A stretch of 64,000 bases of DNA from positions 21,125 through 85,124 of the forward strand of contig CAZOQA010000002.1 in NCBI GenBank assembly GCA_964581775.1, in the 5' to 3' direction. The notes below the pieces were generated by a model. The model made no database searches, was not told the DNA's origin, and saw nothing but the letters and a program-made list of their open reading frames with translations. A program made the translations under genes and the position numbers. Each line of letters begins with the position of its first letter. Position 1 is the first letter of the stretch. This stretch comes from an uncultured Thermoplasmatales archaeon (GTDB lineage: Archaea; Thermoplasmatota; SW-10-69-26). Below are positions 7,121 to 50,470 of this stretch, piece after piece.

Positions 7121-8866
7121 CTAGGCTTCCAGCTCGTCGGCGAGGGTGGAAAGCCGATCCCGTGTGCGCTCATCCGGCTCGTGGTCCTCGAGGCCACGCG
7201 TGGCTTGCTCGTGCGCTTGCTCGGGGCGTCCTAGTTCCTTGAGCGAAAGGGCCTTCTTCCAGGCGAGGTCCGCGAGGCGGTGCCCTGCGTCTGCGGCCTG
7301 GAAGCGCTTGGCGGCTTCCCGGTACCGTTCCAGGGCCTGCTCGTGTTCACCGCGGTGGTACCGGATGTCCCCTTTCTCGTCGAGGACGAGCCCGGCTTGG
7401 TGGTCGTTTCGGATGTCCTGGGGGTCGAAGCGTTCGAGCACGTCGAGGTACAGGTTGTGGTACCCGTCCTCGATGAGGTCGAACTCCTCCAGGTCCAGGT
7501 CGCGTTCGAGCATGGCGAGCACGCGCGAGCGGTTCCCGGCTTCGAGGAGGTGGTAGAGGGCATCCAACCGGGCCTCGAGCGTGCCCTTGGTGAGGGCGTG
7601 CTCTGCGGCCTCCTCGTGCAGGCTGGCGGGGTCCTCGAGGCGCTCGTGGAAGAACGAGCCGAGCAGGCGGTGCATGCGCAGGGTTTCCCCGTCGTCGCGG
7701 AGCAGGCGTCGGCGGCGCAGCTTGACGAGGGCTCCGCCGGGGTCGCGAGGCGTGATGGCCTCGAGGTCCTCGCGCGTGAAGGGCCCGGGGAAGATGCTGG
7801 CGTGGGCGAGCACGCCCTCTTCGGCGTCGCTGAGGTGCCGGCTGACCTCGTCGAGCAGGTAGTCTTCGGTGTCCTGGTCCGGCATGCGGTCGAGCACGGT
7901 CTCTAGCGGGTCGTCGGCCTCCGTGGCGGTCTCTGCCAGAAGGTGGACCGCTAGGGGGTGACCGCCCAGGCGTCGCTGGAGGCGGTGCGCGGTCTCGGTT
8001 GTGGTGTCCAGGCCTCGTTCCCCCAGGAGGGCGTGGACCTCTTCGGGGGCAAGCCCGGTCAAGCGGACCCGGCGCGCGTGTCGGGCGGTGGGGTCGTGCG
8101 AGGGGGCTTGGCGGCCCGTGATGACGAGCTTGCCGTCGTGGACGCGGCGGATCGCGTCCGCGAGCGCGGCCTCGAGGTCCTCGTCTCGGATCTGCTCGAC
8201 GGCGTCCAGCACGGTGACGTGGGCGCCGTCGTCGAGGGCTTCGAGCAGGAGCTCGCGTTGGTCCTCGAGGGGAGCGTTGGCTTCGATGGCGTCCATCAGC
8301 CGGGTGCGGCCGTGGCGGGCGTGGAAGACGCCCAGGCGGTGGGTCAGCCAGGTGAGCGTCTCGGTCCCGCTGAAGGTGTGGAAGAACACGGGCGTCTCGT
8401 CTTGCTTGGCCCGGGCGTAAGCGGACGCGAGGCTGGTTTTCCCGATGCCTGCGATGCCTTCCACGATGACGACGGGGTCGGGCCCGTCCAGGATCTCCAG
8501 CTCGCGGTGGCGCCCGACGAAGCCCGCGGGGTCGGGGATGCGCACGCGCAAGCGGTCGATGACCGTTCGCCGTTCGGCATCGTCCCCGTCTTCTCCCACG
8601 TCGATGGCCAACCCGCGGGCGCCGATCCGCACGCGAAGATCATCCGCGACCAGGCGGTACGTTTTCACGTTCTTCCCGTCCGTGTGCTCCCACGCGGATT
8701 CGACGAGGCCGGCCTCCTGCATGCGGGCCAACCGTCGGGACACGTCCGATTCGCTTCGGGTCAAAAGCCCGCTCAACCGGCGCGGGTGGGAGGGCTCGAT
8801 GGCCAACAGGCTCAAGATGGATTGGTTGACGGGGTTGGCCAAGGCCCGGAGCACGTCCTCCTCCAT
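7121..8866 (-). CDS. wHTH - STAND/NB-ARC-like P-loop NTPase - TPR-like helical repeat protein (putative signal-transducing regulator)
   Basis: N-terminal ArsR-like wHTH (NPVNQSILSLLAIEPSHPRRLSGLL..RRLARMQEAGLVE). Arch_ATPase-like FVGRHRELEIL, Walker A GIAGIGKTSLA and Walker B-like HVTVLDAVE. The C-terminus is helical and TPR-like (YHRGEHEQALERYREAAKRF). Confidence 0.8.
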   Translation of the reverse strand: MEEDVLRALANPVNQSILSLLAIEPSHPRRLSGLLTRSESDVSRRLARMQEAGLVESAWEHTDGKNVKTYRLVADDLRVRIGARGLAIDVGEDGDDAERRTVIDRLRVRIPDPAGFVGRHRELEILDGPDPVVIVEGIAGIGKTSLASAYARAKQDETPVFFHTFSGTETLTWLTHRLGVFHARHGRTRLMDAIEANAPLEDQRELLLEALDDGAHVTVLDAVEQIRDEDLEAALADAIRRVHDGKLVITGRQAPSHDPTARHARRVRLTGLAPEEVHALLGERGLDTTTETAHRLQRRLGGHPLAVHLLAETATEADDPLETVLDRMPDQDTEDYLLDEVSRHLSDAEEGVLAHASIFPGPFTREDLEAITPRDPGGALVKLRRRRLLRDDGETLRMHRLLGSFFHERLEDPASLHEEAAEHALTKGTLEARLDALYHLLEAGNRSRVLAMLERDLDLEEFDLIEDGYHNLYLDVLERFDPQDIRNDHQAGLVLDEKGDIRYHRGEHEQALERYREAAKRFQAADAGHRLADLAWKKALSLKELGRPEQAHEQATRGLEDHEPDERTRDRLSTLADELEA

Positions 8867-8891
8867 CGCCCCTGCCAGGCCCGCGGCGCGC

Positions 8892-8897
8892 TAAATA
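8892..8897 (-). promoter_or_regulatory. TATA-like box (minus strand CCTATTTAG) for the STAND gene
   Basis: AT-rich hexamer in a GC-rich spacer. Its first T is 31 nt upstream of the ATG at 8866. Confidence 0.35.
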
Positions 8898-8925
8898 GGC
8901 TCGCCTTCGGCTGTGTGTTCCCATG

Positions 8926-9993
8926 CTATGCGAAGGGGATCAGGGCCTCGACGTAGAGCACGACGGCGACGAACGCAGCGTACGAGGCCAGGAGCGTCCA
9001 GCCTTCCCGGTGCGTGAGCTCGAAACCGGACCGCATGAACGCTATGAACAGGAGGGTGGAGGCGCCCAGCATCAGCATCAGGGGGCCAAGCCGGGCCAGG
9101 TCCACGACCGCGCTGCCGGCGACCATCACGCCGATGGGCAAGATCACGAGCACGTCGAACGTGTTCGAGCCCAGCACGTTGGCCAGGCTTGCAAGGCTGC
9201 GGTCGTTCCGGGCTGCGCTCATGCTGGCGAACGTGTCCGGCAGGCTCGTGGCGCTCGCGATCACGATCACGCCCCACACGAACGGGGACACCCCCACCTG
9301 GTTGCCCAGGTAGAGGACGCTGCGGATCAGCCCCTCCGCGGAGACGAGGACCAGCAGCAGCCCGGCCACGAGCCCGCCCCACGCCCTCCACGCTTCCACC
9401 GTTTGCCGGGGCTGGGGCGTGTGATCGCGCGTATCCTGCCATTGCAGCACGAGGTACATCGCGTACAAGACGAGGGGGAGGATGGCCAGCTCGCGCGTGA
9501 ACAAGCCTCGCAGGCCCCCGGCCCCCCCGAGGGGGTTGTACACGATGCTCAGCGCGAACACGAGCGAGAGCGCAAGGACCGCGGCCAGGTAGAACAGGCC
9601 CTCCTTGAAGACGAGGTTGCGGCTGGTTTGCATCGTGTCCGACCCGAGCACGGCGATGCCGGGGATGATGAGCACGTTCATCACGGCCGAGCCCACGATG
9701 ATGCCGATGCCCAGCTCGAACGCGTCGTGCAGGAGGGTGGCCAACAGCGTGCTGGCCAGCTCCGGGAAGCTGGACCCGATCGCGATCACGATCGAGCCTT
9801 GGACGACCGGCGGAAGCCCGTAGAGGTTCCCGATCTGCTTGCTGGCCTTCTCGAGCCTGGAGCTGCCGACCCACAAGAGGGCCGCGGACCCGATGAGGAC
9901 CGTGAGCGCGACGGCGAGGGCAAGCACTCGGCGGCGGTAGCTGGGCTTCCTGATATGCGCTGGGTTTGAGGGAAACCCGCAAACCCGACCCAT
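8926..9993 (-). CDS. Ca2+/cation antiporter (CaCA, YrbG-like Na+/Ca2+ exchanger family)
   Basis: Polytopic membrane protein with both alpha-repeat signatures (GSSFPELAST and ATSLPDTFAS). ORF 8926..10050 would overlap the tRNA, so the start is placed at the internal ATG 9993 (MGRVCGF..). Confidence 0.8.
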   Translation of the reverse strand: MGRVCGFPSNPAHIRKPSYRRRVLALAVALTVLIGSAALLWVGSSRLEKASKQIGNLYGLPPVVQGSIVIAIGSSFPELASTLLATLLHDAFELGIGIIVGSAVMNVLIIPGIAVLGSDTMQTSRNLVFKEGLFYLAAVLALSLVFALSIVYNPLGGAGGLRGLFTRELAILPLVLYAMYLVLQWQDTRDHTPQPRQTVEAWRAWGGLVAGLLLVLVSAEGLIRSVLYLGNQVGVSPFVWGVIVIASATSLPDTFASMSAARNDRSLASLANVLGSNTFDVLVILPIGVMVAGSAVVDLARLGPLMLMLGASTLLFIAFMRSGFELTHREGWTLLASYAAFVAVVLYVEALIPFA

Positions 9994-10011
9994 CGTAGAT
10001 CGAGGGGAAGA

Positions 10012-10095
10012 TGCAGGGGGCAGGATTCGAACCTGCGAAGGCCTTGCCACCGGGTCTTAAGCCCGGCCCCTTTGTCCTGGCTAGGGGACCCCTGC
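10012..10095 (-). tRNA. tRNA-Leu(UAA): tRNA-Leu (anticodon UAA), class II with long variable arm; no encoded CCA
   Basis: Hand-folded. Acceptor GCAGGGG/CCCCTGC, anticodon stem CCGGG/CCCGG with loop CUUAAGA, variable arm GGC-AAG-GCC, T arm GCAGG-TTCGAAT-CCTGC, discriminator A; 84 nt. Confidence 0.9.
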
Positions 10096-10220
10096 AGCGG
10101 TTGGAGGCAACCGTCCCGCGTAGAAGAATCCTCTGCCGACAACCGGTCCTCGTCTTGGCCCGGTGTCGGCCGGGATTCCCCCCGTTTCAGGCCCCGAGGC
10201 GAAGAGAAAGAGGGGAACGC

Positions 10221-10599: not shown

Positions 10600-11628
10600 A
10601 TGCGCGCCTTCGGCTTCAAAGAGCATGGCGGCCCCGACGTGCTCGAACACTTCGACGTGAAAGAACCCGACGTGGGACCCGGCGAGGTCAAGGTCAAGAC
10701 CGAAGCCGTCGCCCTCAACCACCTGGACCTGTGGGTGCGCGAAGGCTGGCCCGGGCTGGACCTGCAGCTCCCCCACACGCTGGGCACCGACACGGCCGGC
10801 GTCATCGCCGAGGTCGGCCAAGACGTGGTCGGGCTCGAGCGCGGGGACCCCGTCGTGATCAACCCCTCCCTCTGGTGCGGGTTCTGCCGCGCCTGCGAAG
10901 CCGGGGAACAGTCCCTTTGCGAGTCCTTCTCCATCCTTGGCGAGCACGTCTCCGGCACGCTCACCGAGCACGCGGTCGTGCCCGCGCGCAACGTGCTCGT
11001 GCGCCCCGGGACGCTTGACACGGTCGAGGCCGCCAGCGTGCCCCTGGTCTTCCAGACCGCCTGGCGCATGGCCAACAAGGCCAACATCCGCCCGGGAGAC
11101 ATCGTGCTGGTCCCCGGCGCAGGGGGCGGCGTGGCCACGGCCGCCATCCAGATCGCTAAGCACCTGGGCGGGCACGTGATCGCGACGACCAGCACCGACG
11201 AGAAGAAGAAACGAGCCCAGGCGATCGGCGCGGACGAGGTCGTGTTCTACACGGACGACGACTGGGGCAAGACCGTGCACGAGCTCACGAACAAGCAGGG
11301 CGTCGACGTGGTGCTCGACACGGCCGGACAAGACGTCTGGCCCGAGGCCCAGCAGTTCATGACGCCCGGCGGGTCCTTGGTGTGCTGCGGGGCCACGAGC
11401 GGGCCCGAGGTGGAGCTGGATCTGCGGTACGTGTTCTACCGGCAGTTGGAGTTCATCGGGTCCACGATGGCCAGCGCGAAGGAGTTCGACGAGGCCATGA
11501 ACCTGGTCTTCAACGGGTGGCTGGAACCCGTGGTCGACACCACGTTCCCCTTCGAGGACGCGAAGGACGCGTTCGCGTACCTGGAGGAGGGGAACCAGTT
11601 CGGCAAGGTCGTCGTCGAGATGGACTAG
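10600..11628 (+). CDS. Zn-dependent alcohol dehydrogenase / quinone oxidoreductase family (MDR) protein
   Basis: GroES-like N-terminal domain with Cys cluster CGFCRACEAGEQSLC and Rossmann motif VPGAGGGVATAAIQIAK. Confidence 0.85.
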   Translation: MRAFGFKEHGGPDVLEHFDVKEPDVGPGEVKVKTEAVALNHLDLWVREGWPGLDLQLPHTLGTDTAGVIAEVGQDVVGLERGDPVVINPSLWCGFCRACEAGEQSLCESFSILGEHVSGTLTEHAVVPARNVLVRPGTLDTVEAASVPLVFQTAWRMANKANIRPGDIVLVPGAGGGVATAAIQIAKHLGGHVIATTSTDEKKKRAQAIGADEVVFYTDDDWGKTVHELTNKQGVDVVLDTAGQDVWPEAQQFMTPGGSLVCCGATSGPEVELDLRYVFYRQLEFIGSTMASAKEFDEAMNLVFNGWLEPVVDTTFPFEDAKDAFAYLEEGNQFGKVVVEMD

Positions 11629-11924
11629 CTCGGGTTGCGCGACTTAAGCCGCTTGCTTCGGGCGCTCGCGGGCGGCGAGGGCATCTCACCGAGCTGGGCC
11701 TCGATCTCCTCTTGGCGCTCCTCAAGCGTGCGGATCTTGTCGATCAACCGCTGAGCCCGCGGGTTGTCCTCCTTCGGGCACGTCGAGCACTGCACACCGC
11801 CCAATCGGGCGCGCAACCGGTGGATCTTCACGCTGGCGCGGCGGTGCTCCCGTTCGAGCACCTCCCGCTCGTACGGGTCCTGGATGGGGTCGAGGCCGAT
11901 CAACCGCTTCAGGCGCTCCAGCAC
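11625..11924 (-). CDS. Small basic coiled-coil protein, paralog 1 (unknown function)
   Basis: 99 aa with a GTG start. It shares LxxLKxLxG..E.(E/K)VL.R.H.R and P.A.RL...I..LE..Q..IE..LGE blocks with the neighbouring 95-aa ORF. Its stop shares CTAG with the convergent adh stop. Confidence 0.6.
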   Translation of the reverse strand: MLERLKRLIGLDPIQDPYEREVLEREHRRASVKIHRLRARLGGVQCSTCPKEDNPRAQRLIDKIRTLEERQEEIEAQLGEMPSPPASARSKRLKSRNPS

Positions 11925-11950
11925 GGCGCTCGTGTGTGGGCCTCGAGCAA

Positions 11951-11956
11951 GTTAAG
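11951..11956 (-). promoter_or_regulatory. TATA-like box (minus strand CTTAAC) for the small basic protein gene 11625..11924
   Basis: First T is 31 nt upstream of the GTG at 11924. Confidence 0.35.
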
Positions 11957-11964
11957 GGTTGGCG

Positions 11965-12252
11965 TCAACGGGGTCGGCCGCGCCGGGACTGGGGGCGCTG
12001 GGTGTCCAGGTCCTCCCCGAGGCGCTTCTCGATGTCGCGCTGCTCTTTCTCCAGGTCTTGGATCTCGTGCAGAAGGCGCTTCGCGACGGGGTCCTCCTTC
12101 TTCTTGCCTCCCTTCGTGGGGCGGCTTTTCAGCTGCCGGCGTTTCTGTTGGCGTTTCTGCTCGAGGCGGGCGTGCTTGCGTCGGAGCACGTCCTTCTCGT
12201 GTTCGGAGAGCTCCTCGAACCCGAGCAGGTTCTTGAGGAAGTCCAGCACCAC
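11965..12252 (-). CDS. Small basic coiled-coil protein, paralog 2 (unknown function)
   Basis: 95 aa, Lys/Arg-rich (KRQQKRRQLKSRPTKGGKKKEDP). Alignable to the 99-aa neighbour at both ends. Confidence 0.6.
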   Translation of the reverse strand: MVLDFLKNLLGFEELSEHEKDVLRRKHARLEQKRQQKRRQLKSRPTKGGKKKEDPVAKRLLHEIQDLEKEQRDIEKRLGEDLDTQRPQSRRGRPR

Positions 12253-12298
12253 GCGTCCCGTTGAGCACGTAGGGTCCCTTGAGGCTTCCGTCCGGGCC

Positions 12299-12769
12299 CT
12301 AGCTTCCGGGCCCGCGAAGCCGCGCGGCTAGCACGCCGTTGATCACGACCTCGACCCCCTCGTCGAGCGTCTCCAGGCCGGGCAGCTTTTGCTCGACGGC
12401 GGTGGAGGGGAGCACGGCTTGCCCTTCGGAGCTTTGCACGTACGCGTCGGGCCGCTCGAAGTCCAGGGGCACGATCTCGAACGAGGGCCGGGCCAGGAAG
12501 GGTACGGGTTCTCCCTGATGGAATGTGGAGACCGTGACCTGGTCCCCGGGTTCGAGGTCCGTGTTCTCTTCCAGGGCCTGCTGGTGGAGGCCGAGGCTCG
12601 TGGTGGTCAGCTCGTCGCTGAACCCTCCAAGCAGGGTCAGGTAAGCAAAGCGCGTGGTCTCGATGGGCCACGGGAGCCCGTCCAATCGATACCCGTCGAC
12701 GGCGTCAGGATCGGAGAACCAAGCACCCAGGCGGCCCTTCCGATCGCGAGGGTCTCGGGGGAACACCAT
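12299..12769 (-). CDS. Hypothetical protein
   Basis: ORF 12299..12835. The start is placed at ATG 12769 (MVFPRDPRDRKG..) because a TATA-like CTTAAT lies 30 nt upstream. No family recognised. Confidence 0.55.
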   Translation of the reverse strand: MVFPRDPRDRKGRLGAWFSDPDAVDGYRLDGLPWPIETTRFAYLTLLGGFSDELTTTSLGLHQQALEENTDLEPGDQVTVSTFHQGEPVPFLARPSFEIVPLDFERPDAYVQSSEGQAVLPSTAVEQKLPGLETLDEGVEVVINGVLAARLRGPGS

Positions 12770-12794
12770 CGATGGTATGGTGTCACACGAGCAC

Positions 12795-12800
12795 ATTAAG
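12795..12800 (-). promoter_or_regulatory. TATA-like box (minus strand CTTAAT) for 12299..12769
   Basis: First T is 30 nt upstream of the ATG at 12769. It is divergent from the cbs promoter. Confidence 0.35.
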
Positions 12801-12868
12801 CGTTTCGGAAGAGGCACACGGGAGAACACGCACACGGGAGGACCCGAGGTCCGCCGCCCGCCGAGCGG

Positions 12869-12874
12869 TTTAAG
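12869..12874 (+). promoter_or_regulatory. TATA-like box (TTTAAG) for the cystathionine beta-synthase gene
   Basis: First T is 38 nt upstream of the ATG at 12907, which implies a short leader. Confidence 0.35.
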
Positions 12875-12906
12875 GCCCCTGCCCGGGGTGGCGCCCTGAT
12901 ACGCGT

Positions 12907-14262
12907 ATGCGCGTCCACGATAGCATCCTCGATACGCTCGGGGGCACGCCCCTGGTCCGCCTGAACCACGTCGCCCCCGAGGGCCCCACCGTGTACGCCA
13001 AGGTGGAGGCCTTCAACCCCGGAGGCAGCGTGAAGGACCGGATCGGGATCTCCATGATCGAGAAAGCCGAACAGGAGGGCGATCTGGAGCCCGGCGGTAC
13101 GATCGTGGAGGGCACCAGCGGGAACACGGGCATCGGGCTGGCCATCGCGGCCTCCCTGAAAGGCTACGACGTCGTGTTCACGATGCCCGACAAGATGGCC
13201 GTCGAGAAGGAGAAGCTGCTTCGCTCGTACGGCGCCGAGGTGATCCGCTGCCCCACGGACGTGGACCCGGACGACCCGCAAAGCTACTACAGCGTCGCCC
13301 AACGCATCGCGGACGAGGACGACAACGCCGTCTACGTGAACCAGTACTACAACGACGCCAACCCCCAAGCCCACATCGAGACCACCGGCCCCGAGATCTG
13401 GGACGACACGGACGGCCGGATCACGCACTTCGTGGCCGGCGTCGGCACCGGCGGCACCATCAGCGGCACCAGCCGCTACCTCAAGCAGCAAGACCCCAGC
13501 GTCGTCACCATCGGCGTCGACCCCCGGGGCTCGATCCTCGCCCACAAGCACGAGACCGGCCAAACGCGCCCCGACCTGGCCCAATCCTACCTCACCGAAG
13601 GCATCGGGGAAGACCTGGTCCCCTCCACCGTGTGGTTCGACGAGATCGACCACTTCGTGGAAACGCAAGACCGCGAATCCTTCGACATGGCCCGCGAGCT
13701 CGCCAAGAAGGAAGCCATCCTCTCCGGTTCCAGCGCCGGCGCCGCCATCGTGGGCGTCCGCCGCGCCCACGAGCAAGGCCTCATCGACGACGACGCCCTC
13801 GTCGTCGTGCTCCTCCCCGACACGGGCGAACGCTACCTCTCCAGCGCCTACGACACCTCCTGGCTGCGCTCGAAAGGCCTCGTCGACCCCGCCACCACCG
13901 CGGCCGGCGCCGCCGTCACGCCCATCCCCCGCGTCCCCCCCGACGCCGATCTGCCAGCGATCCTGCGCGTGGCCACCGCGCGCGAGGTCCCCGCGGTCCC
14001 CGTCATCGAGGACGACCACGTCATGGGCCTGGTCCACCTCGAAGACGTCCACACCGACCTGCTCGAGAGCATCGACGCCCGCGAACGGACCGCCGCCGAG
14101 CTCGCCAACGCAGCCCCCCCCACCGTGACCGCCTCCACGCCCATCGGGGAAGCCGCGAACACGCTCGTCAAACAGGACACCCTCATCGTCACCGACGACG
14201 GGACCCCCCACGGGCTGCTCACGCGCGAACGCGTGCTCGCCCACATGGGCCGCCTGGGATGA
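12907..14262 (+). CDS. Cystathionine beta-synthase-like PLP enzyme (CysK/CysM fold + C-terminal CBS pair)
   Basis: PLP-lysine motif NPGGSVKDR, GTSGNTGIGLA and GVGTGGTISG. The C-terminal ~130 aa look like a CBS pair. Confidence 0.85.
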   Translation: MRVHDSILDTLGGTPLVRLNHVAPEGPTVYAKVEAFNPGGSVKDRIGISMIEKAEQEGDLEPGGTIVEGTSGNTGIGLAIAASLKGYDVVFTMPDKMAVEKEKLLRSYGAEVIRCPTDVDPDDPQSYYSVAQRIADEDDNAVYVNQYYNDANPQAHIETTGPEIWDDTDGRITHFVAGVGTGGTISGTSRYLKQQDPSVVTIGVDPRGSILAHKHETGQTRPDLAQSYLTEGIGEDLVPSTVWFDEIDHFVETQDRESFDMARELAKKEAILSGSSAGAAIVGVRRAHEQGLIDDDALVVVLLPDTGERYLSSAYDTSWLRSKGLVDPATTAAGAAVTPIPRVPPDADLPAILRVATAREVPAVPVIEDDHVMGLVHLEDVHTDLLESIDARERTAAELANAAPPTVTASTPIGEAANTLVKQDTLIVTDDGTPHGLLTRERVLAHMGRLG

Positions 14263-14266
14263 CCCC

Positions 14267-15328
14267 GTGAGCCTCCCTCAGCTCGTCCTCGACGAGGTCG
14301 ACCGCCAAGGCCCCATGACGGTGGCCCGGTTCATGCAGCTGGCCCTCTACCACCCCCAGCACGGCTACTACGCCACCCAGCGACGAGCCGGCAAGGAATG
14401 GTTCACGGGTCCCACGCTGCACCCCGTCTTCGGGCACACCCTCGCCCAAGGCATCGCGCCCCTGCTCGAGCCGTGCCAAGCGCCCACGCTCGTCGACGCC
14501 GGAACCGGAAGCGGAGAGCTTGCCCGCGACGTCGCGCTCGGGCTCCACGAAACAGCGCCCAGCATCTTCGAAGACCTCCAGATCGTGCTCCTCGACGAAA
14601 GCCAAGCCGCCCTCGAACGAGCCCAAGCCACGCTCCAAGAGGCAGGCATCGGGCTCGACGCCGTGCACACGGGAACGCGACCCCCCGACGGGGTCACCGG
14701 CGTGATCCTCGCCAACGAGCTGCTCGACGCCCTTCCCACGCACCTTTGCCAAGCCACCCAGGACGGCGTCCAAGAGATCCACCTCGTCCCCGGCGACCCC
14801 ACCCTGAGCCTGGCACGCGCGCCCCCCTCCACTCGACGCCTCGAACGCCACGCCGAACGCATCGCAGGCCCCCTCGAACCCGGCCACCTCTTCGAGGTGC
14901 CCCTGGACGCCTACGACTGGACCGCCGACGCCGCCACGAAGCTCGAGAAGGGCGCGCTCGTGCTCATCGACTACGGAGCCCCCCGCCGAGCCCTGCTCGA
15001 GCGCTACCCCAACGGCACGCTGCACGCCTACCGAAACGGCCACCGCGTCGAAGAGTTCTGGTACGACCCCGGCCAGATGGACATCACCTACCGCATCCCC
15101 TTCGACGAGATCGCGAACCAAGGCGAAGACCACGGCCTCGCCACGCGAACCCTGGCCCCGCAGGGCCGCGTGCTCGACGCGCTGAGCATCCGCCAGCTCG
15201 CGCAAGAAGGCCGCGACGTGCTCGCCATCAAGAAGCTCATCGACCCCCAAGGCGCCGGCGGCACCTTCCACGTGCTCATGCAAACCAAAGACCTCCACGT
15301 CACCGACCCCTGGCCCGGCGCGACCTGA
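14267..15328 (+). CDS. SAM-dependent methyltransferase, MidA/DUF185 family
   Basis: FMQLALYHPQHGYYAT is the typical MidA N-terminus, with the SAM motif VDAGTGSGELARD. GTG start, 4 nt after the cbs stop. Confidence 0.7.
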   Translation: MSLPQLVLDEVDRQGPMTVARFMQLALYHPQHGYYATQRRAGKEWFTGPTLHPVFGHTLAQGIAPLLEPCQAPTLVDAGTGSGELARDVALGLHETAPSIFEDLQIVLLDESQAALERAQATLQEAGIGLDAVHTGTRPPDGVTGVILANELLDALPTHLCQATQDGVQEIHLVPGDPTLSLARAPPSTRRLERHAERIAGPLEPGHLFEVPLDAYDWTADAATKLEKGALVLIDYGAPRRALLERYPNGTLHAYRNGHRVEEFWYDPGQMDITYRIPFDEIANQGEDHGLATRTLAPQGRVLDALSIRQLAQEGRDVLAIKKLIDPQGAGGTFHVLMQTKDLHVTDPWPGAT

Positions 15329-15337
15329 GCGTGAACC

Positions 15338-15343
15338 TTATCG
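15338..15343 (+). promoter_or_regulatory. TATA-like box (TTATCG) for thpR-cca
   Basis: First T is 32 nt upstream of the ATG at 15370. It lies just after the midA stop. Confidence 0.3.
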
Positions 15344-15369
15344 GGCCCCGCGCGGTTCCCGCCGCACCG

Positions 15370-15921
15370 ATGCCGCGCCTGTTCATCGGCGTCCCGGCGC
15401 CCGAAGACCTGGACGCCAGCGGAGCCCGCCGCGCCGTGCAAGACCACGCGCGCGAGGTCAAGCTCGTCGACCCCGAGCACTACCACGTCACGCTGGCCTT
15501 CCTCGGCGACACGAACGAGGACAAGGTCCCCGCCGTGCGCGCCGCCCTCCAACAAGCCCTCGACGGCAAAACCCCCACCCAGGGGCAAGCCCGCGGGCTG
15601 GGAGCCTTCCCCAGCCCCAGCCGCGCAAGCGTCGTCTGGATGGGCGTCCACGACGCCCAGATGACCCCGCTCGCGACCAGCATTCGGGACGCGCTCGACG
15701 ACCAGGACATCGCCTACGACGACCGGCACGACTTCCACGCCCACCTCACGCTGGCGCGGCTGCGCGAGAAACAAGACCTCACGCCTCTTCTGGACCCGCA
15801 CGAAGCCACCGAGTTCGGGCCCTACCCCGTGGACACGGTGAACCTGTACGCCTCCACGCTCACCCCCGACGGCCCCGAGTACGAGACCCGCGAGACCCTG
15901 CGCCTGGAGGACCCCCGGTGA
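15370..15921 (+). CDS. thpR: RNA 2',3'-cyclic phosphodiesterase (2H family, ThpR/LigT)
   Basis: Two H-x-T-L motifs (HVTLAF and HLTLAR) in 183 aa. This is the real part of the chimeric ORF 14398..15921. Confidence 0.85.
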   Translation: MPRLFIGVPAPEDLDASGARRAVQDHAREVKLVDPEHYHVTLAFLGDTNEDKVPAVRAALQQALDGKTPTQGQARGLGAFPSPSRASVVWMGVHDAQMTPLATSIRDALDDQDIAYDDRHDFHAHLTLARLREKQDLTPLLDPHEATEFGPYPVDTVNLYASTLTPDGPEYETRETLRLEDPR

Positions 15922-17291
15922 CGGCCTGGCGCAAGCAAGCCCTCGAGCGCATCAAGCCCACGCCCCAGGAAGACCAAAAGACCCAACAAGACGCCACGAG
16001 CCTCGTCGAAGACGTCGAAAAGCTCCTCGACGAGGAAGGCTGGGACGGGACCCCCCGCCTGGAGGGATCCCTCGCCAAAGGCACCTACCTGCACGGGCAA
16101 GGCGATTTGGACGTGTTCGTCGCCTTCCCCCCCACCCTCGAGCGAGGCACGCTAGAGGACCGCGTGCACACCCTCAAGCGCGTGCTCGAGGACGGCCACG
16201 TCGCGTACGCCGAGCACCCCTACGCCCAAGGCACCTACCGAGGCCACGACGCCGAGATCGTCCCCTGCTACGACCTCGCCTCCCCCCGAGACCCCCGCTC
16301 CGCCGTCGACCGCACCCCCTTCCACACCGAGCACATCCAGCACGCGCTCACGGACGAACAGCGCGACGAAGTGCGCCTTCTCAAAGCCTTCCTCGAAACT
16401 GCCGCATGCTACGGAGCCAAGGAATCCGTCCGCGGCGTCTCCGGGTACCTCGCCGAGCTCATGATCCTCCACCACGGCGCCTTCCAGGACGTGCTCGCCT
16501 GGGCCACCCGCGGGTTCCCCCACCCCATCACGTTCGAAGAGCCCCCCGCTCGACGGTTCGACGCGCCCCTCGTCATCGTGGACCCCGTCGACCCCGGCCG
16601 CAACGCCGCCGCCGCCGTGCGCGCCTCCACGCTGAACAGGTTCCAGGAAGCCGCCGCCGCCTTCCGGCAAGACCCCCACGCGCGCTTCTTCCAACCCCCC
16701 GCGCCCGCTCACATGGACGCCGACACGGCGCTGGAACGCTGCCAAGCCCGCAACACGCGGGTGCTCGCGCTCACGCTGCCCCTCGACGAAGACCTCCTCG
16801 AGGACCCCGTCCACGCCCAACTCCGCCGCGCCGTCACGCTCGCCACGGACCAGCTCGAACGCGATCAGATCCCCGTGCACGCCACCGCGACGCTGCTCGA
16901 CGAGGACCCGCGCGAAGGCTGGATCCTCCTCGAAGCCCACGAGACCGCCCTCAGCGAACCGTACGTCCACCAAGGCCCCCCCGTCCACCTCGACGAGCAC
17001 GCCGCCGCCTTCCGCGAGCAATGGGACGCCTCGCCTCAAGCCGCCGGAGACGTGTACGACGAAGAAGGACGCCTGGTCGTCAAGGTCCACCGCGAGACCG
17101 ACACGCTCGCCGACATCGTGGCCCCCCACCTCGAAGAGGCCAACGCTGGCAAGATCGTGGACGAAGCCCTCGAGGACGGGACCGCCCAGGTTCACGAGGG
17201 CGACGACGCTCTCGCGAAAGCCCCCCCCGCGGCGCGGTCGGCGCTTCTCGACCGGCGACGCCCCTGGGAGCGCACCGCACCGAGCCCGTAG
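15918..17291 (+). CDS. cca: CCA-adding enzyme (archaeal class I tRNA nucleotidyltransferase)
   Basis: EGSLAKGTYLHGQGDLDVFVAF (GS..DxD) and RTPFHTEH. The GTG start overlaps the thpR stop as GTGA. Confidence 0.85.
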   Translation: MTAWRKQALERIKPTPQEDQKTQQDATSLVEDVEKLLDEEGWDGTPRLEGSLAKGTYLHGQGDLDVFVAFPPTLERGTLEDRVHTLKRVLEDGHVAYAEHPYAQGTYRGHDAEIVPCYDLASPRDPRSAVDRTPFHTEHIQHALTDEQRDEVRLLKAFLETAACYGAKESVRGVSGYLAELMILHHGAFQDVLAWATRGFPHPITFEEPPARRFDAPLVIVDPVDPGRNAAAAVRASTLNRFQEAAAAFRQDPHARFFQPPAPAHMDADTALERCQARNTRVLALTLPLDEDLLEDPVHAQLRRAVTLATDQLERDQIPVHATATLLDEDPREGWILLEAHETALSEPYVHQGPPVHLDEHAAAFREQWDASPQAAGDVYDEEGRLVVKVHRETDTLADIVAPHLEEANAGKIVDEALEDGTAQVHEGDDALAKAPPAARSALLDRRRPWERTAPSP

Positions 17292-17298
17292 CCGAGCC

Positions 17299-18129
17299 TC
17301 ACGTCTTCAAGCTCGTCCTCGTATCCCCCAGGAACAACGACCGCAGCCAGTAGCTGGCCTCGTCGATGGCGATCACGACGACGAACACGATCGCCAAGAG
17401 CACGAAGACCGCATCGTACGCGAAGAACTGCATGTACCCCCAGATGTGATACCCGATCCCACCCGCCCCGACGATGCCGATCGCGGAGGCGTGGCGGACG
17501 TTGTACTCGAACATGAAAAGGCACTGGCTGATCAGCGCGTTGGCCGCCTGAGGGAGCACCACGAAGCGCAGCACCTGGAAGCGGCTTGCCCCCAGGGCGC
17601 CCACGGCCTCCATGGGTTCCGCGTCCAGCCCCTCGAACGCCTCGTACTCAAGCTTGCCCACGAACCCGATCGTGTACACGCTGATCGCGATCACGCCGGC
17701 CAGAGCCCCCGTCCCGACCAGGATCACGAAGATCAGCGCCCAGAGGATGCTGGGGAGCACGCGGACGCCGGCCAGGATCCAGCGCGCGGGCACGTTCAGG
17801 TACCACGGGAACAGGTTCCGGCTGGCGACCAGGCTCAGCGGGATGCTCAGCGCGACGCCGACCAGGGTCCCGATGTACGCGATGTACAGGGTCTCCTGGA
17901 TGCCCCGCAGACCGACCTCCAGCACGGACGTGTCGGGCGGGATCGAGATGTCGAACAGGAAGCCCAGGTTCGACCAGGTCCCGGCGAGGCTCTCGCGGTG
18001 CAGGCCCAACGCGAAAAAGCACCAGGCCGCGATGAGGAGCACGGCAAGCCCGAGCAGGGCTCCGGTGCCCAGGCCGAGGCGTTCGAGCAGGGGCTCGGTG
18101 GCGGTCTCTTGCCGGGGTTCAACGGGCAT
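17299..18129 (-). CDS. phnE: ABC transporter permease, PhnE type
   Basis: Six-TM permease with a PhnE-like EAA region (EAFEGLDAEPMEAVGALGASRFQVLRFVVLPQA). Confidence 0.8.
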   Translation of the reverse strand: MPVEPRQETATEPLLERLGLGTGALLGLAVLLIAAWCFFALGLHRESLAGTWSNLGFLFDISIPPDTSVLEVGLRGIQETLYIAYIGTLVGVALSIPLSLVASRNLFPWYLNVPARWILAGVRVLPSILWALIFVILVGTGALAGVIAISVYTIGFVGKLEYEAFEGLDAEPMEAVGALGASRFQVLRFVVLPQAANALISQCLFMFEYNVRHASAIGIVGAGGIGYHIWGYMQFFAYDAVFVLLAIVFVVVIAIDEASYWLRSLFLGDTRTSLKT

Positions 18130-18850
18130 GGAGGTGCTTGGGGGCTTCCCGGTCCTCGTCCGTGGACTCGATGCGTTCCGAGATGCCGCCCTCGTCCAGC
18201 CGGACGAGGCGGTCGGAGATCTCCCAGGCGACGTCGAGGTTGTGCTCGACGATGACGACCGTCATGTTCGTCTCCTCTTGGAGAACGCGCAGGGAGTCGA
18301 TCACGGTCTGCGCGGTCTCGACGTCCAGCTCGGAGAGGATCTCGTCGGCGAGCAGGATCCGGGGACGCTGGACGAGGGCGCGAGCGATGGCGACGCGCCG
18401 TCGTTGACCTCCGCTTAGCTCCTTGACGCGCGAGGAGACGACCTCGTCGAGGCCGATCTTGTCGAGGGCTCGGCGTGCTTCGTGGCGGGCCTTGCGCGGG
18501 AACAGGCCCAGCGCGCTTCGCAGGGACCCGAGGCCGGATAGGGTGCCGTGGAGCACGTTGCGCAGGGCGGTCTCGTGCTCGACGAGGCCTAGGTTCTGGG
18601 GGATGTACCCGAGCTGGCCGGAGGGGGGTGCATCGGGGAGGGTGGATCCGAGCACGTTCGCGTCCCCGCCGAGGGGGGCAAGGATGCCGGCCAGCGTTTT
18701 GAGGAGCGTCGTCTTCCCGCATCCGCTGGGTCCCACGAGGCCTAGCGTCTCGCCGGCGTCGACCTCGAACGAGACCCCCTCGAGCACGGGCGACTGCTTG
18801 TACCCGACGCAGAGGCGTTCGCACGTGACGAGGGGGTCGTTCGGGGGCAT
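18119..18850 (-). CDS. phnC: ABC transporter ATP-binding protein, PhnC type
   Basis: Walker A GPSGCGKTT, signature LSGGQRRRVAIARAL and Walker B ILLADE. The start is placed at ATG 18850 (MPPNDPLV); the upstream part of ORF 18119..19135 is junk. It overlaps phnE by 11 nt. Confidence 0.85.
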   Translation of the reverse strand: MPPNDPLVTCERLCVGYKQSPVLEGVSFEVDAGETLGLVGPSGCGKTTLLKTLAGILAPLGGDANVLGSTLPDAPPSGQLGYIPQNLGLVEHETALRNVLHGTLSGLGSLRSALGLFPRKARHEARRALDKIGLDEVVSSRVKELSGGQRRRVAIARALVQRPRILLADEILSELDVETAQTVIDSLRVLQEETNMTVVIVEHNLDVAWEISDRLVRLDEGGISERIESTDEDREAPKHLHAR

Positions 18851-18855
18851 CGAGG

Positions 18856-19851
18856 TCAGGTCCAGGTCTTCTCTTCGAAGTAGTCTTGGATGCCGGGGAT
18901 GTTCTCGACGAGGTCGCCGTACCCGCCGAGGTGGCCTTCCGTGTCGACGTGCTTGATCGCGGGCGTGTTGAGCACGTCTTCGAGCACGGTTTGCCCGTCG
19001 CCGTCGTTGAGGGACAGGAGCCCGTACTTGAGCAGGGCGCGGTCCTCGAGCGGGAGGTCGGGGTTGACCATGACGGGGTGGCTGGGTACGCGGGCGAAGG
19101 TTTCGAGGACGCGGTACTCGTCGCGGTCCAGGCACCAGTCGGGTGCGTCGTCAGGCTGGCAGTACTCCTCCCAGGTTGTGTCGCGCACGAAGGCGACATC
19201 GCCGCGCTCGTCGCTGAGGCACTGGAAGGCGCCTTGGTACCCGCCGCCGACGACGGGGTCTTCGAAGTATTGCTCGCGGGCTTGCTGCAGGGCGGTGAGG
19301 TCGTCGGGGAGCTCGCTCGTGTCGATGAGCCCGTTCTCGAAGAGGTAGCCCATGGGCATGAGCGTGCCGGAGCTGCCGAGCTCGCTGGTGTGGCAGCTTC
19401 GGGCGCCTTCGAGGTCGGCCATGGTCTCGTAGGGGGAGTCGGCGTGGACCCAGGCGGCGGCGACGTAGTAGGTGCGCCCGTCGGCCTTGGCGTCGGCGGC
19501 GATGGCTTCGAGGCCGAGCTGTTGCCAGGCTACCCAGGCGGCGCCGCCGTCGAGGAACGCGGCGGTCGCGTCGCCGGTGGCGACGGCGGCGGTGGCGGCG
19601 CTTTCGTCCTGCACGGGCACGATCTCGACCTCTCGTTGGGTGGCTTCGGAGAGCTCGTCGGCGAGGGGTTGGGTGTCGTCGACGAACTGGTCGAAGTCGT
19701 CTTTGACGCTGAAGGCGAGCTTGAAGGGTTCTTCCGTGTCGCCCTCGGCCGTGTTGGCGGGGTCTTCCCCGGTGCCGGGGGCGACGCATCCAGCGATCAT
19801 GACGACGGCTCCGATCAGCGTGAAGAGCATGGTTCGGCGGTGCATTCGCAA
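18856..19851 (-). CDS. Lipoprotein substrate-binding protein of the ABC system, PhnD-superfamily with transferrin-like Fe-ligand signature
   Basis: Lipobox VVMIAGC. Blocks FLDGG, TYYVAAAWV, RSCHTSELGSSG, GGYQGAFQCLSDERGDVAFVRDTT and RVPSHPVMV match transferrin N-lobe ligand blocks (see findings). Confidence 0.8.
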   Translation of the reverse strand: MRMHRRTMLFTLIGAVVMIAGCVAPGTGEDPANTAEGDTEEPFKLAFSVKDDFDQFVDDTQPLADELSEATQREVEIVPVQDESAATAAVATGDATAAFLDGGAAWVAWQQLGLEAIAADAKADGRTYYVAAAWVHADSPYETMADLEGARSCHTSELGSSGTLMPMGYLFENGLIDTSELPDDLTALQQAREQYFEDPVVGGGYQGAFQCLSDERGDVAFVRDTTWEEYCQPDDAPDWCLDRDEYRVLETFARVPSHPVMVNPDLPLEDRALLKYGLLSLNDGDGQTVLEDVLNTPAIKHVDTEGHLGGYGDLVENIPGIQDYFEEKTWT

Positions 19852-19865
19852 CTACCTCGGGCCTT

Positions 19866-19885
19866 GTTTTAGGCGGCCCTAAAAC
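19866..19885. promoter_or_regulatory. Perfect 8-4-8 inverted repeat GTTTTAGG-cggc-CCTAAAAC overlapping the putative TATA box of the phn-like operon
   Basis: Read directly from the sequence. The right arm on the minus strand (GTTTTAGG) starts 33 nt upstream of the ATG at 19851. The left arm lies between the box and the start. Confidence 0.4.
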
Positions 19886-20016
19886 CGGAACGAGGTCGGT
19901 CCCACAAAAGCGTTGCCCCGTCAAAACCGGGTTTTGAGCTGCTCTCGCACGGGACGCCCTGGCAAGGGAACCGGGGGTGCGCGCAGGCCAGCTGGCTCGG
20001 GCCGCATCCCCTAGGG

Positions 20017-36945: not shown

Positions 36946-37374
36946 GTGGCCTCCACGAGCCCCCTCACGCTTGCCACGGACGGCGCCTCCCGGGGCAACC
37001 CCGGCCCCGCCGCGATCGCGTACGCGCTCTTCGACGAGCACGACGAGCGGTTGAACCAAGACGCGGCGACCATCGGGGCGGCCACGAACAACGAGGCCGA
37101 GTACGAGGCCCTGCTGGCCGGGCTCGAAGCCGCCGCGAAGGTCACCGCCGGCCCCCTCGTCCACCTGTCCGATAGCCAGCTGGTCGTCCGCCAACTGAAC
37201 GGAGAGTACAAGATCCGCGCGGACCGGCTGGCCCGCAAGGCCCGCAAGGCCCGCCGCCTAGCCGACCGCTTCGAGCGCGTCGAACACCGCCACGTGCCCC
37301 GCAGACATCCACGCATCGATGCCGTCGATGAGCTAGCCAACCAAGCCCTCGACCGTCAAGAAGACGAGGAATAA
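36946..37374 (+). CDS. rnhA: Ribonuclease HI (type 1 RNase H)
   Basis: DEDD residues lie in TDGASRGNPG, NNEAEYEAL, SDSQL and IDAVDELAN. GTG start. Confidence 0.8.
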   Translation: MASTSPLTLATDGASRGNPGPAAIAYALFDEHDERLNQDAATIGAATNNEAEYEALLAGLEAAAKVTAGPLVHLSDSQLVVRQLNGEYKIRADRLARKARKARRLADRFERVEHRHVPRRHPRIDAVDELANQALDRQEDEE

Positions 37375-47416: not shown

Positions 47417-49054
47417 ATGCGGAGGCAATCGTGGATCCTGCTCGCCGGCGCAAGCCTCCTGGTCCTCCTTGCCGGGTGCCTGGGAGCGCTGGACAGCGTC
47501 GACGAGGACGGGTTGAGGGACGACGAGGACGCGACCGTGGCCTGGCACGAGGCCGCGCTCCCCCACGGGGATGAGCATGACCACGCCAACCGCTCCCACC
47601 ACGAGGGCCTCACCACGCCCAACTTCCACGTCCGCGGCTACAACCCGCTTTTCAGCCCCTTCTACGACGCCCCCGCCGGCTCGTACTTCTGCGGGGACGC
47701 GATGACCACCGAGGACGACCGGCGCCTGGCCGTCGTCGAGAGCCGAAGCCAGGTCGGGTTCGCCATCGCCGACGTCACCGACCCGGACGACCCCCGATGG
47801 CTGGGCGAGCTCGTGCTCCCCAGCACACACGTCTACGACCTTGCCGTGGCCCCCGACGGCGAGCACGTGATCCTCGCCACGAGCAACCTGCACAACGACG
47901 CGCAACCCGACCTGCCCGACCCCACGCTCCCCTTCGGCCCCGACGCTGAACGACAGGCCGCGGAGAGCCCCGTCTGGATCTCCCCCTGCAACGACGAGCC
48001 CGTGCCCCTCACCGGGGACGCGCTCCAACACGAGATCCCGCGCCCCATGAGCGCGCTGCTTGTCTCCATCGAGGACCCCGAGGAACCCCAGATCCTCGAA
48101 CAACAACCCCTCGTCGGGAACGGGCACAGCGTGTTCATCGACCGCTTCGACGGCGAGGACTGGGTCATGATCACCACCAGCCGCACCCCCAGCCCCCAAA
48201 GCCCCCCCGTGGTCAGCCACAACGCCGTCAGCGCGTACGAGTTCTTCCGCCTGCAAGAAGCCCCCCACGGGGCCACGATGGAACGCGTCACCACGTACTC
48301 CCCCCCGCCCGACGAGAACGCTCTCGAAGAAAGGCCCCTGGGCCCGCGCGGGCACGACGGGTGGATGAACATCCACCCCGCCACCGGGGACCTGACCGCG
48401 TACCTCGCCGGCGGCGAACGGTTCACGATCCTCGACATGAGCACCCCCCGCGCGCCCCAGGAGCTCAGCCGCTGGAGCCCCCAAGGCCCCGGAACCGCCG
48501 CCGAGACCGGGCTCTTGCACAGCGCCTGGGCCCCCGACGAGCTCTGGAACGACCGGCACTTCACCCTCATCGGCCCCGAGCACCACGAACGCCCCGGGCC
48601 CTACCCAACCGGCCTGATCTGGGCGCTCGACACGACCGACCCCACGGACCCCCAGCTCGTGGCCGGATGGACCCTGCCCGCGCCCGTCGAATGGAACGGG
48701 ACCTACATGTTCAGCAACCACTACTTCACGGGTCACAACCAGACCCTGTACGTCTCCCAATACCACGGGGGCCTCTGGGCCGTGGACATGGCGCCCCTCC
48801 AGCAGGATCCCGACGCGTCGGACGGGCTCATCCACCTGGACTCCATCGGCGCGTTCATCCCCGATCGCGAGCCGCCGCAAGAACCCGCCGTCGAGCAACG
48901 CTGGGCCCCCACGCTCGAGGAAGCCCTCGCCATGCCGGACGGGACCGTGGTCACGTTCGACGGGAACGCCGGCCTCTACGTGGTCGACTTCGACGAGGAC
49001 GCCCCCATGCCCGCCCCCGAACCCTGGCCCGTGCACGACCCCACCGCCAGCTAG
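47417..49054 (+). CDS. Lipoprotein with LVIVD-like beta-propeller repeats, paralog 1
   Basis: Lipobox LLAGC and His-rich WHEAALPHGDEHDHANRSHHEG. Repeated GF/L-x-I/L-x-D-x-(S/T)-x-P-x-x-P units (FAIADVTDPDDP, LLVSIEDPEEP, FTILDMSTPRAP, WALDTTDPTDP). Confidence 0.7.
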   Translation: MRRQSWILLAGASLLVLLAGCLGALDSVDEDGLRDDEDATVAWHEAALPHGDEHDHANRSHHEGLTTPNFHVRGYNPLFSPFYDAPAGSYFCGDAMTTEDDRRLAVVESRSQVGFAIADVTDPDDPRWLGELVLPSTHVYDLAVAPDGEHVILATSNLHNDAQPDLPDPTLPFGPDAERQAAESPVWISPCNDEPVPLTGDALQHEIPRPMSALLVSIEDPEEPQILEQQPLVGNGHSVFIDRFDGEDWVMITTSRTPSPQSPPVVSHNAVSAYEFFRLQEAPHGATMERVTTYSPPPDENALEERPLGPRGHDGWMNIHPATGDLTAYLAGGERFTILDMSTPRAPQELSRWSPQGPGTAAETGLLHSAWAPDELWNDRHFTLIGPEHHERPGPYPTGLIWALDTTDPTDPQLVAGWTLPAPVEWNGTYMFSNHYFTGHNQTLYVSQYHGGLWAVDMAPLQQDPDASDGLIHLDSIGAFIPDREPPQEPAVEQRWAPTLEEALAMPDGTVVTFDGNAGLYVVDFDEDAPMPAPEPWPVHDPTAS

Positions 49055-49084
49055 GACGACCGCCCTGCGCGCATTCCCCAACAC

Positions 49085-49090
49085 TTATCC
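49085..49090 (+). promoter_or_regulatory. TATA-like box (TTATCC) for the FKBP-like lipoprotein gene
   Basis: First T is 31 nt upstream of the ATG at 49116. Confidence 0.3.
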
Positions 49091-49115
49091 AAGCTGGACT
49101 CAAGGGGGGTCTCGC

Positions 49116-50399: not shown

Positions 50400-50470
50400 C
50401 CCCTCGGTACCGCGCGTGACCCTCCGGGGCAGGGACACCTACAAAAGGCCCCAGCCCCACTCGGCCCAGG

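Follow-up and report, generated by a model that had tools for sequence, protein, structure and literature searches.

The window analysed here, a stretch of 64,000 nucleotides (nt) from contig CAZOQA010000002.1 of an uncultured Thermoplasmatales archaeon, carries three adjoining genes at 17299..19845 on the minus strand, which encode a substrate-binding lipoprotein, an ATPase and a permease of the ATP-binding cassette (ABC) type. Judged from its sequence, the binding protein belongs to the transferrin family as a true one-lobe member, and its partner is an ABC importer of the PhnC/E type. The operon comprises the following features:

18856..19845, minus strand: gene of the single-lobe transferrin-family substrate-binding lipoprotein, 329 amino acids from the ATG
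19786..19845, minus strand: signal peptide with twin arginine (MHRRTMLF) and lipobox IAGC (translation, codon check)
19786-19788, minus strand: codon of the predicted lipid-anchor Cys20 (codon check)
18119..18850, minus strand: PhnC-like ABC ATPase, 243 amino acids (Pfam ABC_tran, 112 bits), 5 nt after the stop codon of the binding-protein gene
17299..18129, minus strand: PhnE-type ABC permease, 276 amino acids (BPD_transp_1), overlapping the ATPase gene by 11 nt

The first-pass annotation of this DNA had described a 331-amino-acid lipoprotein encoded at 18856..19851 on the minus strand, wired to a PhnC-type ATPase by a 5-nt gap and to a PhnE-type permease by an 11-nt overlap. This open reading frame (ORF) is present and begins with a TTG at 19851, and both spacings are as described, the gap being counted from stop codon to ATG. 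A start at the ATG of 19845 is also possible and yields 329 amino acids; the database copy of the protein (P0001) uses this start, and residues are numbered here after the 329-residue form. The N-terminus, MHRRTMLFTLIGAVVMIAGC, is a twin-arginine-like signal which indeed ends in a lipobox with its Cys, and Gly19 and Cys20 are at least 90% conserved among 68 relatives. The protein is strongly acidic, with 63 Asp and Glu against 19 Lys and Arg residues, as expected for a salt-adapted organism. Its AlphaFold2 (AF2) model is confident, with a predicted local distance difference test (pLDDT) value of 91.4, and represents the open state, the top template-modelling (TM) scores in Foldseek being obtained with apo or open structures.

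The assignment of the partner genes to the PhnC/PhnE type also holds. The permease scores 232.9 bits with the PhnE model TIGR01097, above its equivalog cut-off of 216.7 bits, and the ATPase has its best match in the PhnC model TIGR02315, though at 178.6 bits it stays below the cut-off of 266.1 bits. As a single permease gene is present in the operon, a permease homodimer is implied. The order substrate-binding protein (SBP), ATPase, permease was found in 70 of the 77 loci with enough sequence, while five loci appear to be orphans, namely L003, in which the order is ATPase, permease, SBP, and four low-GC bacterial loci lacking PhnC/E partners.

With a score of 73.3 bits (E = 2.7e-20) the binding protein passes the curated cut-off of the Pfam Transferrin model PF00405 (20.3 bits), and the same domain is precomputed in 120 of 120 relatives among the matches listed. 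In a phmmer search of PDB sequences the best 60 matches were all transferrins, with ovotransferrin at the top (E = 3.6e-27). Alignment of a profile of the 68 relatives with the N-lobe of human transferrin by hhalign gave a probability of 99.7, an E-value of 1.6e-26 and 36% identity over 181 columns, as compared to an E-value of 6e-9 and 17% identity for the same family profile with PhnD of E. coli; the family is thus much closer to transferrin than to PhnD. The human N-lobe sequence used is 100% identical to residues 1-331 of PDB chain 3ve1_B. The homology to transferrins, which had been proposed from five blocks aligned by eye, is borne out by these searches, and all five blocks reappear in the HMMER alignment with ovotransferrin and in the hhalign alignment with the N-lobe of the human protein. 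The proposed one-lobe size agrees as well, with 329 amino acids against about 680 for a bilobal transferrin. Monolobal transferrins exist in ascidians, and the bilobal architecture is typical rather than defining.

A phmmer search of 1.84 billion cluster representatives with the single sequence as query retrieved just 454 proteins at E <= 1e-3. Among those listed, the proteins that could be identified by name comprise mono- and bilobal forms from archaea, transferrin-like proteins of eukaryotes and a small number of SBPs from a basal grade described below. Foldseek returned apo-PtxB with E = 1.5e-17 and 18% identity, and transferrin N-lobes with E = 3.6e-16, 22-25% identity and longer alignments. 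The comparison of folds cannot discriminate the PtxB from the transferrin family, and this pattern is expected of an intermediate.

The positions that form the iron and anion site of transferrin were located by HMMER, hhalign and MAFFT, which agree on every correspondence:

19549..19551, minus strand: codon of Asp99, equivalent of the iron ligand Asp63; Asp in 59 of 68 relatives
19465..19467, minus strand: codon of Tyr127, equivalent of the iron ligand Tyr95; Tyr in 68 of 68 relatives
19375..19395, minus strand: C151-H-T153-S-E-L-G157, start of the anion-site helix (alignments, codon check)
19237..19239, minus strand: codon of Tyr203, equivalent of the iron ligand Tyr188; Tyr in 67 of 68 relatives
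19219-19221, minus strand: codon of Cys209, the partner cysteine, equivalent of transferrin Cys194; Cys in 66 of 68 relatives
19078..19080, minus strand: codon of His256, equivalent of the iron ligand His249; His in 68 of 68 relatives

In the numbering of human transferrin, Asp99, Tyr127, Tyr203 and His256 hence correspond to Asp63, Tyr95, Tyr188 and His249, and Cys151, Thr153, Gly157 and Cys209 to Cys118, Thr120, Arg124 and Cys194. The complete Asp/Tyr/Tyr/His ligand set, the threonine and the cysteine pair, all of which the first-pass annotation had read from the letters, are therefore present at homologous positions. For the Tyr95 block the tyrosine is indeed there, but the earlier alignment was out of register by one residue: the ligand is the second tyrosine of RTYY, which is invariant in all 68 relatives, whereas the first is variable. 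Both Cys151 and Cys209, aligned to the Cys118-Cys194 pair, occur in 66 of the 68 relatives, and all four cysteines that are invariant in the family are intact in the window protein. Thr153 is present, and a helix begins at residue 158 of the AF2 model. The position of Arg124 is not basic, as had been noticed before: it is Gly157 in the window protein and Lys in 57 of 68 relatives.

Written as a pattern of eight positions, the site reads D-Y-C-T-R-Y-C-H in both lobes of human transferrin, D-Y-C-T-K-Y-C-H in 78 of 85 prokaryotic relatives taken from genomes, D-Y-C-T-G-Y-C-H in the window protein and G-Y-D-T-S-H-A-D in PhnD of E. coli. On these residue patterns, the hypersaline sub-lineage of the window protein is a derived variant, and the typical member of the family has the full transferrin site with Lys in place of Arg. 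Since the basic anion residue is replaced by Gly in the window protein, anion binding is probably weaker or different there.

Two palindromes lie in the divergent intergenic region upstream of the operon:

19866..19885, no strand: perfect palindrome GTTTTAGG-N4-CCTAAAAC, centre about 30 nt upstream of the ATG
19921..19937, no strand: a further perfect palindrome, TCAAAACC-N-GGTTTTGA

The first is the window copy of a family-wide motif, TTAGG-N4-CCTAA, and its sole occurrence in 64 kb. Related loci, 1.23 Mb in total, contain 108 occurrences of the motif, of which 101 precede a transferrin-like SBP gene by no more than 300 nt, at 70 loci (for example L092 at 1541-1556, L095 and L082). Among the remaining seven, four lie upstream of a FEA1-like gene, two upstream of an ATPase gene (L098 and L099) and one in L004; L098 and L099 are near-identical, and their copies are counted in both. 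The FEA1-like gene of these two loci is preceded by copies at 9143 and 9187. Flanking positions are variable, with the exception of a T preceding the core, a G that follows the first arm and an A that follows the core. In 23 of 61 distinct upstream regions the motif is present twice, the most frequent distance being 44 nt, and a variant TTTCGG-N4-CCGAAA occurs in six loci. This distribution is good evidence for a dedicated regulator common to transferrin-like and FEA1-like genes. From the motif statistics we infer that TTAGG-N4-CCTAA is a candidate operator which overlaps the promoter region and probably controls expression of the operon. The arms equal the pentamers of the DtxR/IdeR iron-box consensus, TTAGGTTAGCCTAACCTAA, and in one locus the motif has the form TTAGGTTAGCCTAA. 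No metal regulator was found near the operon among ten ORFs of the window that were scanned. The second palindrome occurs, among all fetched sequences, in the window and in a Logan contig of the same sequence (L001/L091) only, and was found neither in other loci nor elsewhere in the window.

The replacement of Lys by Gly in the window protein, together with the additional change of Tyr203 to Asn in L003, might mean that the window copy is decaying or has acquired a new function and no longer carries a metal. Such losses have precedents, as some transferrin relatives have lost iron binding and several archaeal bilobal members lack most of the ligands. Yet the four metal ligands, the threonine and the four family-invariant cysteines of the window protein are intact, its operon is compact and complete, the family operator is kept upstream and the AF2 model is confident, so that we regard decay or neofunctionalisation as very unlikely.

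The family was detected in at least 411 species-level genomes. Most of them belong to the Poseidoniales (marine group II) or to other Thermoplasmatota; a few are Halobacteria and some are bacteria. It is a large family rather than a rarity, and the names given to it in Pfam, UniProt and NCBI already flag the transferrin domain. The genomes nearest to the window protein are metagenome-assembled genomes (MAGs) of Thermoplasmata/Thermoplasmatales, with 62-65% identity. An archaeal-type CCA-adding enzyme is encoded adjoining the operon, and the region 10600-17291 of the window is syntenic with 2195-8982 of L003, a Thermoplasmata MAG from soda-lake sediment; the common neighbours are the CCA-adding enzyme, a quinone-oxidoreductase-like gene and a small protein with an EREVL motif.

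Several gene neighbourhoods outside the window point indirectly to metals. In a low-GC (37-40%) group of marine bacteria (L060, L072, L074 and L078) the transferrin-like gene has no PhnC/E partners, and in L060 (33-4996) the genes directly before it encode a FecCD permease, an ABC ATPase, a Peripla_BP_2 protein, a PNPOx-like protein and a heme oxygenase. Downstream of the transferrin-like gene, this bacterial group encodes a conserved protein of about 305 amino acids without Pfam match. In L098 and L099, which belong to marine group IIb, the gene of an FEA1-related lipoprotein (7904-9127, minus strand) is located directly upstream of a bilobal member with its ATPase and permease, and a further single-lobe copy of the family is present on the other strand. 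The FEA1-like protein matches Pfam Fea1 with 70 bits, is named 'FEA1-related lipoprotein' by NCBI and has 917 homologues, largely from marine metagenomes. In Hoyosella rhizosphaerae (L087, 9066-12486) the operon directly follows ArsR and FUR-family genes.

The Hoyosella protein forms a sub-clade with the haloarchaeal L006, L069 and L088, in which Asp63 is replaced by Ser and the Lys by Thr or Ala (motifs LSGGP and DLTGAGM). This Ser-type sub-clade lacks the TTAGG-N4-CCTAA palindrome, a PadR-like gene comes after one of the haloarchaeal copies, and the ligand may be a different one. These observations raise the question whether the family carries not iron but another hard metal or metal-anion complex, such as Mn(III), Al(III), Ti(IV) or vanadium, or Zn in the Ser-type sub-clade. 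The coupled exchange of Asp for Ser and of Lys for Thr or Ala would fit, as would the position of the Hoyosella member after an ArsR and FUR-family pair, an arrangement which presumably resembles the actinobacterial SmtB-Zur order; moreover, in transferrins a Tyr/Tyr/Asp/His site does not bind iron exclusively. However, the full transferrin ligand set is present in the 78 of 85 relatives named above, and the heme oxygenase and FEA1 neighbours indicate iron specifically, which makes another metal an unlikely substrate.

A different substrate class is suggested by routine annotation, which, as had been predicted from the sequence, calls these proteins phosphonate-binding. Source names of the relatives include 'ABC-type phosphate/phosphonate transport system substrate-binding protein', used by the Joint Genome Institute (JGI), and 'PhnD/SsuA/transferrin family substrate-binding protein'; others are 'melanoma-associated antigen p97' and a truncated UniRef name starting 'Transfe…'. 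Phosphonate transport has likewise been listed within the core genome of marine group II (Tully 2019, PMC6336850), and this transport function is plausibly the transferrin-like ABC system described here. In the comparison of Pfam models suggested by the first-pass annotation, the Transferrin match is significant, but Phosphonate-bd (PF12974) scores higher, at 128 bits (E = 4.9e-37) against 73 bits.

The window protein could accordingly be a binder of a phosphorus oxyanion (phosphonate, phosphite or hypophosphite), or of arsenate or selenate, with the Tyr, His and Thr side chains acting as hydrogen-bond donors. Besides the top Pfam match, the PhnE-type permease and the PhnC-like ATPase agree with such a substrate, as do the best Foldseek matches, PtxB, AioX, ArrX and HtxB, and the conservation of Tyr127 and Thr153 in E. 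coli PhnD. The Phosphonate-bd model is broad, covering binders of arsenite, arsenate, sterols and other compounds as well. Against the oxyanion stand the specific PhnD models, since the SBP reaches 61.3 bits with TIGR03431 (cut-off 261.1) and 86.5 bits with TIGR01098 (cut-off 112.05), both far below threshold, and tblastn with E. coli PhnD matched none of the family genes at E < 1e-5. We take the ligand residues of E. coli PhnD to be Tyr93, Ser127-Thr128-Ser129, His157 and Asp205; the positions of its His157 and Asp205 are occupied by Tyr and His in the window protein, that is, by the transferrin set. Neither in the 64-kb window nor in 89 loci did E. coli PhnG, PhnH, PhnI, PhnJ or PhnM give a tblastn match, PhnX, PhnW, PtxD and HtxA not being among the queries. 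A nearby phosphonate pathway was considered and rejected, as carbon-phosphorus (C-P) lyase genes were not found and the matches to PhnK and PhnL are generic ABC ATPase matches. Together with the neighbourhoods that contain heme, iron or FEA1-related genes, these results make an oxyanion substrate improbable.

Uptake of Fe(III), for which the first-pass annotation had argued from the ligand set, is the best-supported function of the window protein, with a probability of about 0.6 in our estimate from homology and context; the gene neighbourhoods and the conserved candidate operator lend it circumstantial support. An iron or metal substrate is favoured because the ligand positions that discriminate between the two families carry transferrin residues and not those of PhnD, because no C-P lyase genes lie near the 89 loci, and because of the heme oxygenase/FecCD cluster of L060, the ArsR and FUR-family genes of Hoyosella and the FEA1-related gene of L098/L099. 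Several points weigh against iron. The highest Pfam score belongs to Phosphonate-bd, apo-PtxB is placed slightly above the transferrin lobes by Foldseek, and the permease exceeds its PhnE cut-off, so that the substrate could be an oxyanion. The basic residue of the anion site is absent from the window protein (Gly157), and in its nearest relative, L003 (D-Y-C-T-G-N-C-H), the second tyrosine is lost too, so that the function of this sub-lineage may be shifting. Iron genes are absent from most archaeal neighbourhoods. A role of an iron-dependent repressor is hypothetical, the spacing of the arms differing from that in the DtxR/IdeR box. In the literature searched no binding data were found for any member of the family, and no description of the prokaryotic transferrin family, its operator, the bilobal forms or the FEA1 partner; an earlier description is possible.

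From the homology, the conserved residues, the operon structure and the genomic context we infer both the ligand and the direction of transport. If the protein serves iron uptake, the three genes would form a self-contained binding-protein-dependent ABC importer, with the SBP anchored outside the membrane through the lipid on Cys20. The open two-domain protein would capture Fe(III) in its interdomain cleft by Asp99, Tyr127, Tyr203 and His256, and a synergistic oxyanion, by analogy carbonate, would be bound by Thr153 and by the N-terminal end of the helix that comes next. The closed form would then dock on the PhnE-type permease homodimer; hydrolysis of ATP by the PhnC-like ATPase would open the SBP, and the iron would be translocated.

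The relation to eukaryotic transferrins was examined by a neighbour-joining tree (Kimura distances, rooted on E. coli PhnD, moderate bootstrap) of 207 lobes, in which multi-lobe proteins were split. A basal grade consists of prokaryotic SBPs which lack the transferrin disulfide and mostly keep the Tyr, Thr, Tyr and His; examples are Nitrosopumilus P0159 (D-Y-A-T-G-Y-L-H), Heimdallarchaeota P0153 (D-Y-S-T-G-Y-R-H) and about 25 others. The prokaryotic transferrin-like family comprises 62 lobes with a bootstrap of 40% (59% if up to two strays are allowed), and its sister clade of 117 lobes, with a bootstrap of 73% (89% if up to three strays are allowed), contains all identified eukaryotic lobes. 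Both together receive 78% support. The tree fits the view that the family is the closest prokaryotic relative of eukaryotic transferrins, and the idea, already voiced in the first-pass annotation, of an intermediate between PhnD-type proteins and transferrins; being rough, it does not fix the direction of transfer.

The nearest eukaryotic proteins are multi-lobe proteins of ichthyosporeans and Corallochytrium, most lobes of which have Lys at the position of Arg124. Transferrin-like lobes of these holozoans (Chromosphaera, Creolimax, Amoebidium, Ichthyophonus, Sphaeroforma and Corallochytrium) score 130-200 bits each with the archaeal profile, and the proteins reach at least 5 lobes and 1894 amino acids. 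The nearest eukaryotic and multi-lobe set comprises P0122, P0124, P0126, P0130, P0133, P0142, P0146 and P0152. Transferrin-like proteins of 4 to 7 lobes are also encoded by siphonous green algae (Bryopsis, Caulerpa).

Multiple lobes occur within the archaea, too. At 7983-10097 of L070, a Poseidoniales MAG, a lipoprotein of 704 amino acids with two D-Y-C-T-K-Y-C-H lobes is followed by ATPase and permease, and marine group II contains bilobal clusters of 660-711 amino acids (P0121, P0123, P0125 and P0137), one of them with 123 members. In some archaeal bilobal clusters one or both sites are degenerate. These bilobal and degenerate forms indicate that duplication of the lobe, and loss of the iron site in one lobe, took place independently of eukaryotic transferrins.

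Taken further, and put forward tentatively at somewhat less than even odds, the prokaryotic family would be the stem of all eukaryotic transferrins or their closest sister still surviving, with a transfer to, or exchange with, an early holozoan, and the 'phosphonate transport' of marine group II would be a high-affinity iron uptake under a metal-responsive TTAGG-N4-CCTAA operator, in some lineages assisted by an FEA1-related lipoprotein. Within this scenario the iron-carbonate site with its basic residue, the disulfide and even the duplication of the lobe would have been in place already in ABC-coupled archaeal lipoproteins. Descriptions of transferrin usually treat it as a protein of animals, or of eukaryotes at the widest. 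If the family binds iron, it would provide a testable intermediate on the way from a nutrient-binding protein to a circulating iron carrier. A 'phosphonate' transporter of abundant surface-ocean archaea would have to be re-labelled and the iron and phosphorus ecology of metagenomes re-read, and simple single-lobe transferrins, some of them salt-adapted, would become available for biochemistry and biotechnology.

Elsewhere in the window, a tRNA-Leu at 10010-10096 (minus strand) was called by both ARAGORN and Rfam. A tRNA-Ala called by ARAGORN at 37181-37267 (minus strand) lies inside an ORF, does not reach the Rfam gathering threshold and is probably a false positive. Three consecutive genes at 47417-52054 (plus strand; 545, 427 and 527 amino acids) each encode a protein that starts with a signal peptide terminating in LLAGC or LVAGC; they may form a lipoprotein cluster. 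The protein of 581 amino acids encoded at 7121-8866 (minus strand) shows weak, below-cut-off matches to a PadR-like helix-turn-helix, an NB-ARC/AAA_16 NTPase and tetratricopeptide repeats, an architecture resembling STAND proteins.

Among known systems, the window protein resembles the eukaryotic transferrins (serotransferrin, ovotransferrin, lactoferrin and melanotransferrin). It shares with them the two-domain fold of the size of one lobe, Asp/Tyr/Tyr/His at homologous positions, the carbonate-binding threonine at the start of the equivalent helix, the Cys118-Cys194 pair and the motifs SCHT and GAFxCL..GDVAF. It differs by having one lobe instead of two, far fewer disulfides, an archaeal host and Gly (Lys in most relatives) at Arg124, and it is lipid-anchored and coupled to an ABC importer, whereas the eukaryotic proteins are taken up by receptor-mediated endocytosis. 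The transferrin-like proteins of unicellular holozoans are eukaryotic, have 2 to 5 or more lobes and lack an ABC partner.

With PhnD, PtxB, HtxB and AioX the window protein has in common the SBP fold class (Foldseek E about 1e-17, TM-score up to 0.82 on the target), the kind of ATPase and permease, the tyrosine of the hinge strand and the threonine at the helix start. Unlike these proteins, to which it is only 14-18% identical, it falls below the NCBIfam cut-offs, possesses the cysteines of the transferrin disulfide and has no C-P lyase genes nearby. FbpA, FutA and IdiA, the 'bacterial transferrins', are periplasmic or surface Fe(III) binding proteins which use tyrosine ligands, a synergistic anion and an ABC permease of the BPD_transp_1 type. 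Their job is like the one proposed here, but the SBP family is different: the likeness of FbpA to transferrin is convergent or very remote, while that of the window protein is direct sequence homology. An FbpA-type identity of the window protein was rejected, as no SBP_bac-type family was found among its Pfam and NCBIfam matches at E <= 1. Finally, the phytotransferrins, the FEA1/ISIP2a family (PF07692), are an iron-uptake family which, in the summary of McQuaid 2018 given by PMC7676907, is said to share a PhnD-like origin with transferrin. The window protein gave no match to PF07692 and the window contains no FEA1-like gene; the protein thus stands in the transferrin and not in the phytotransferrin branch.

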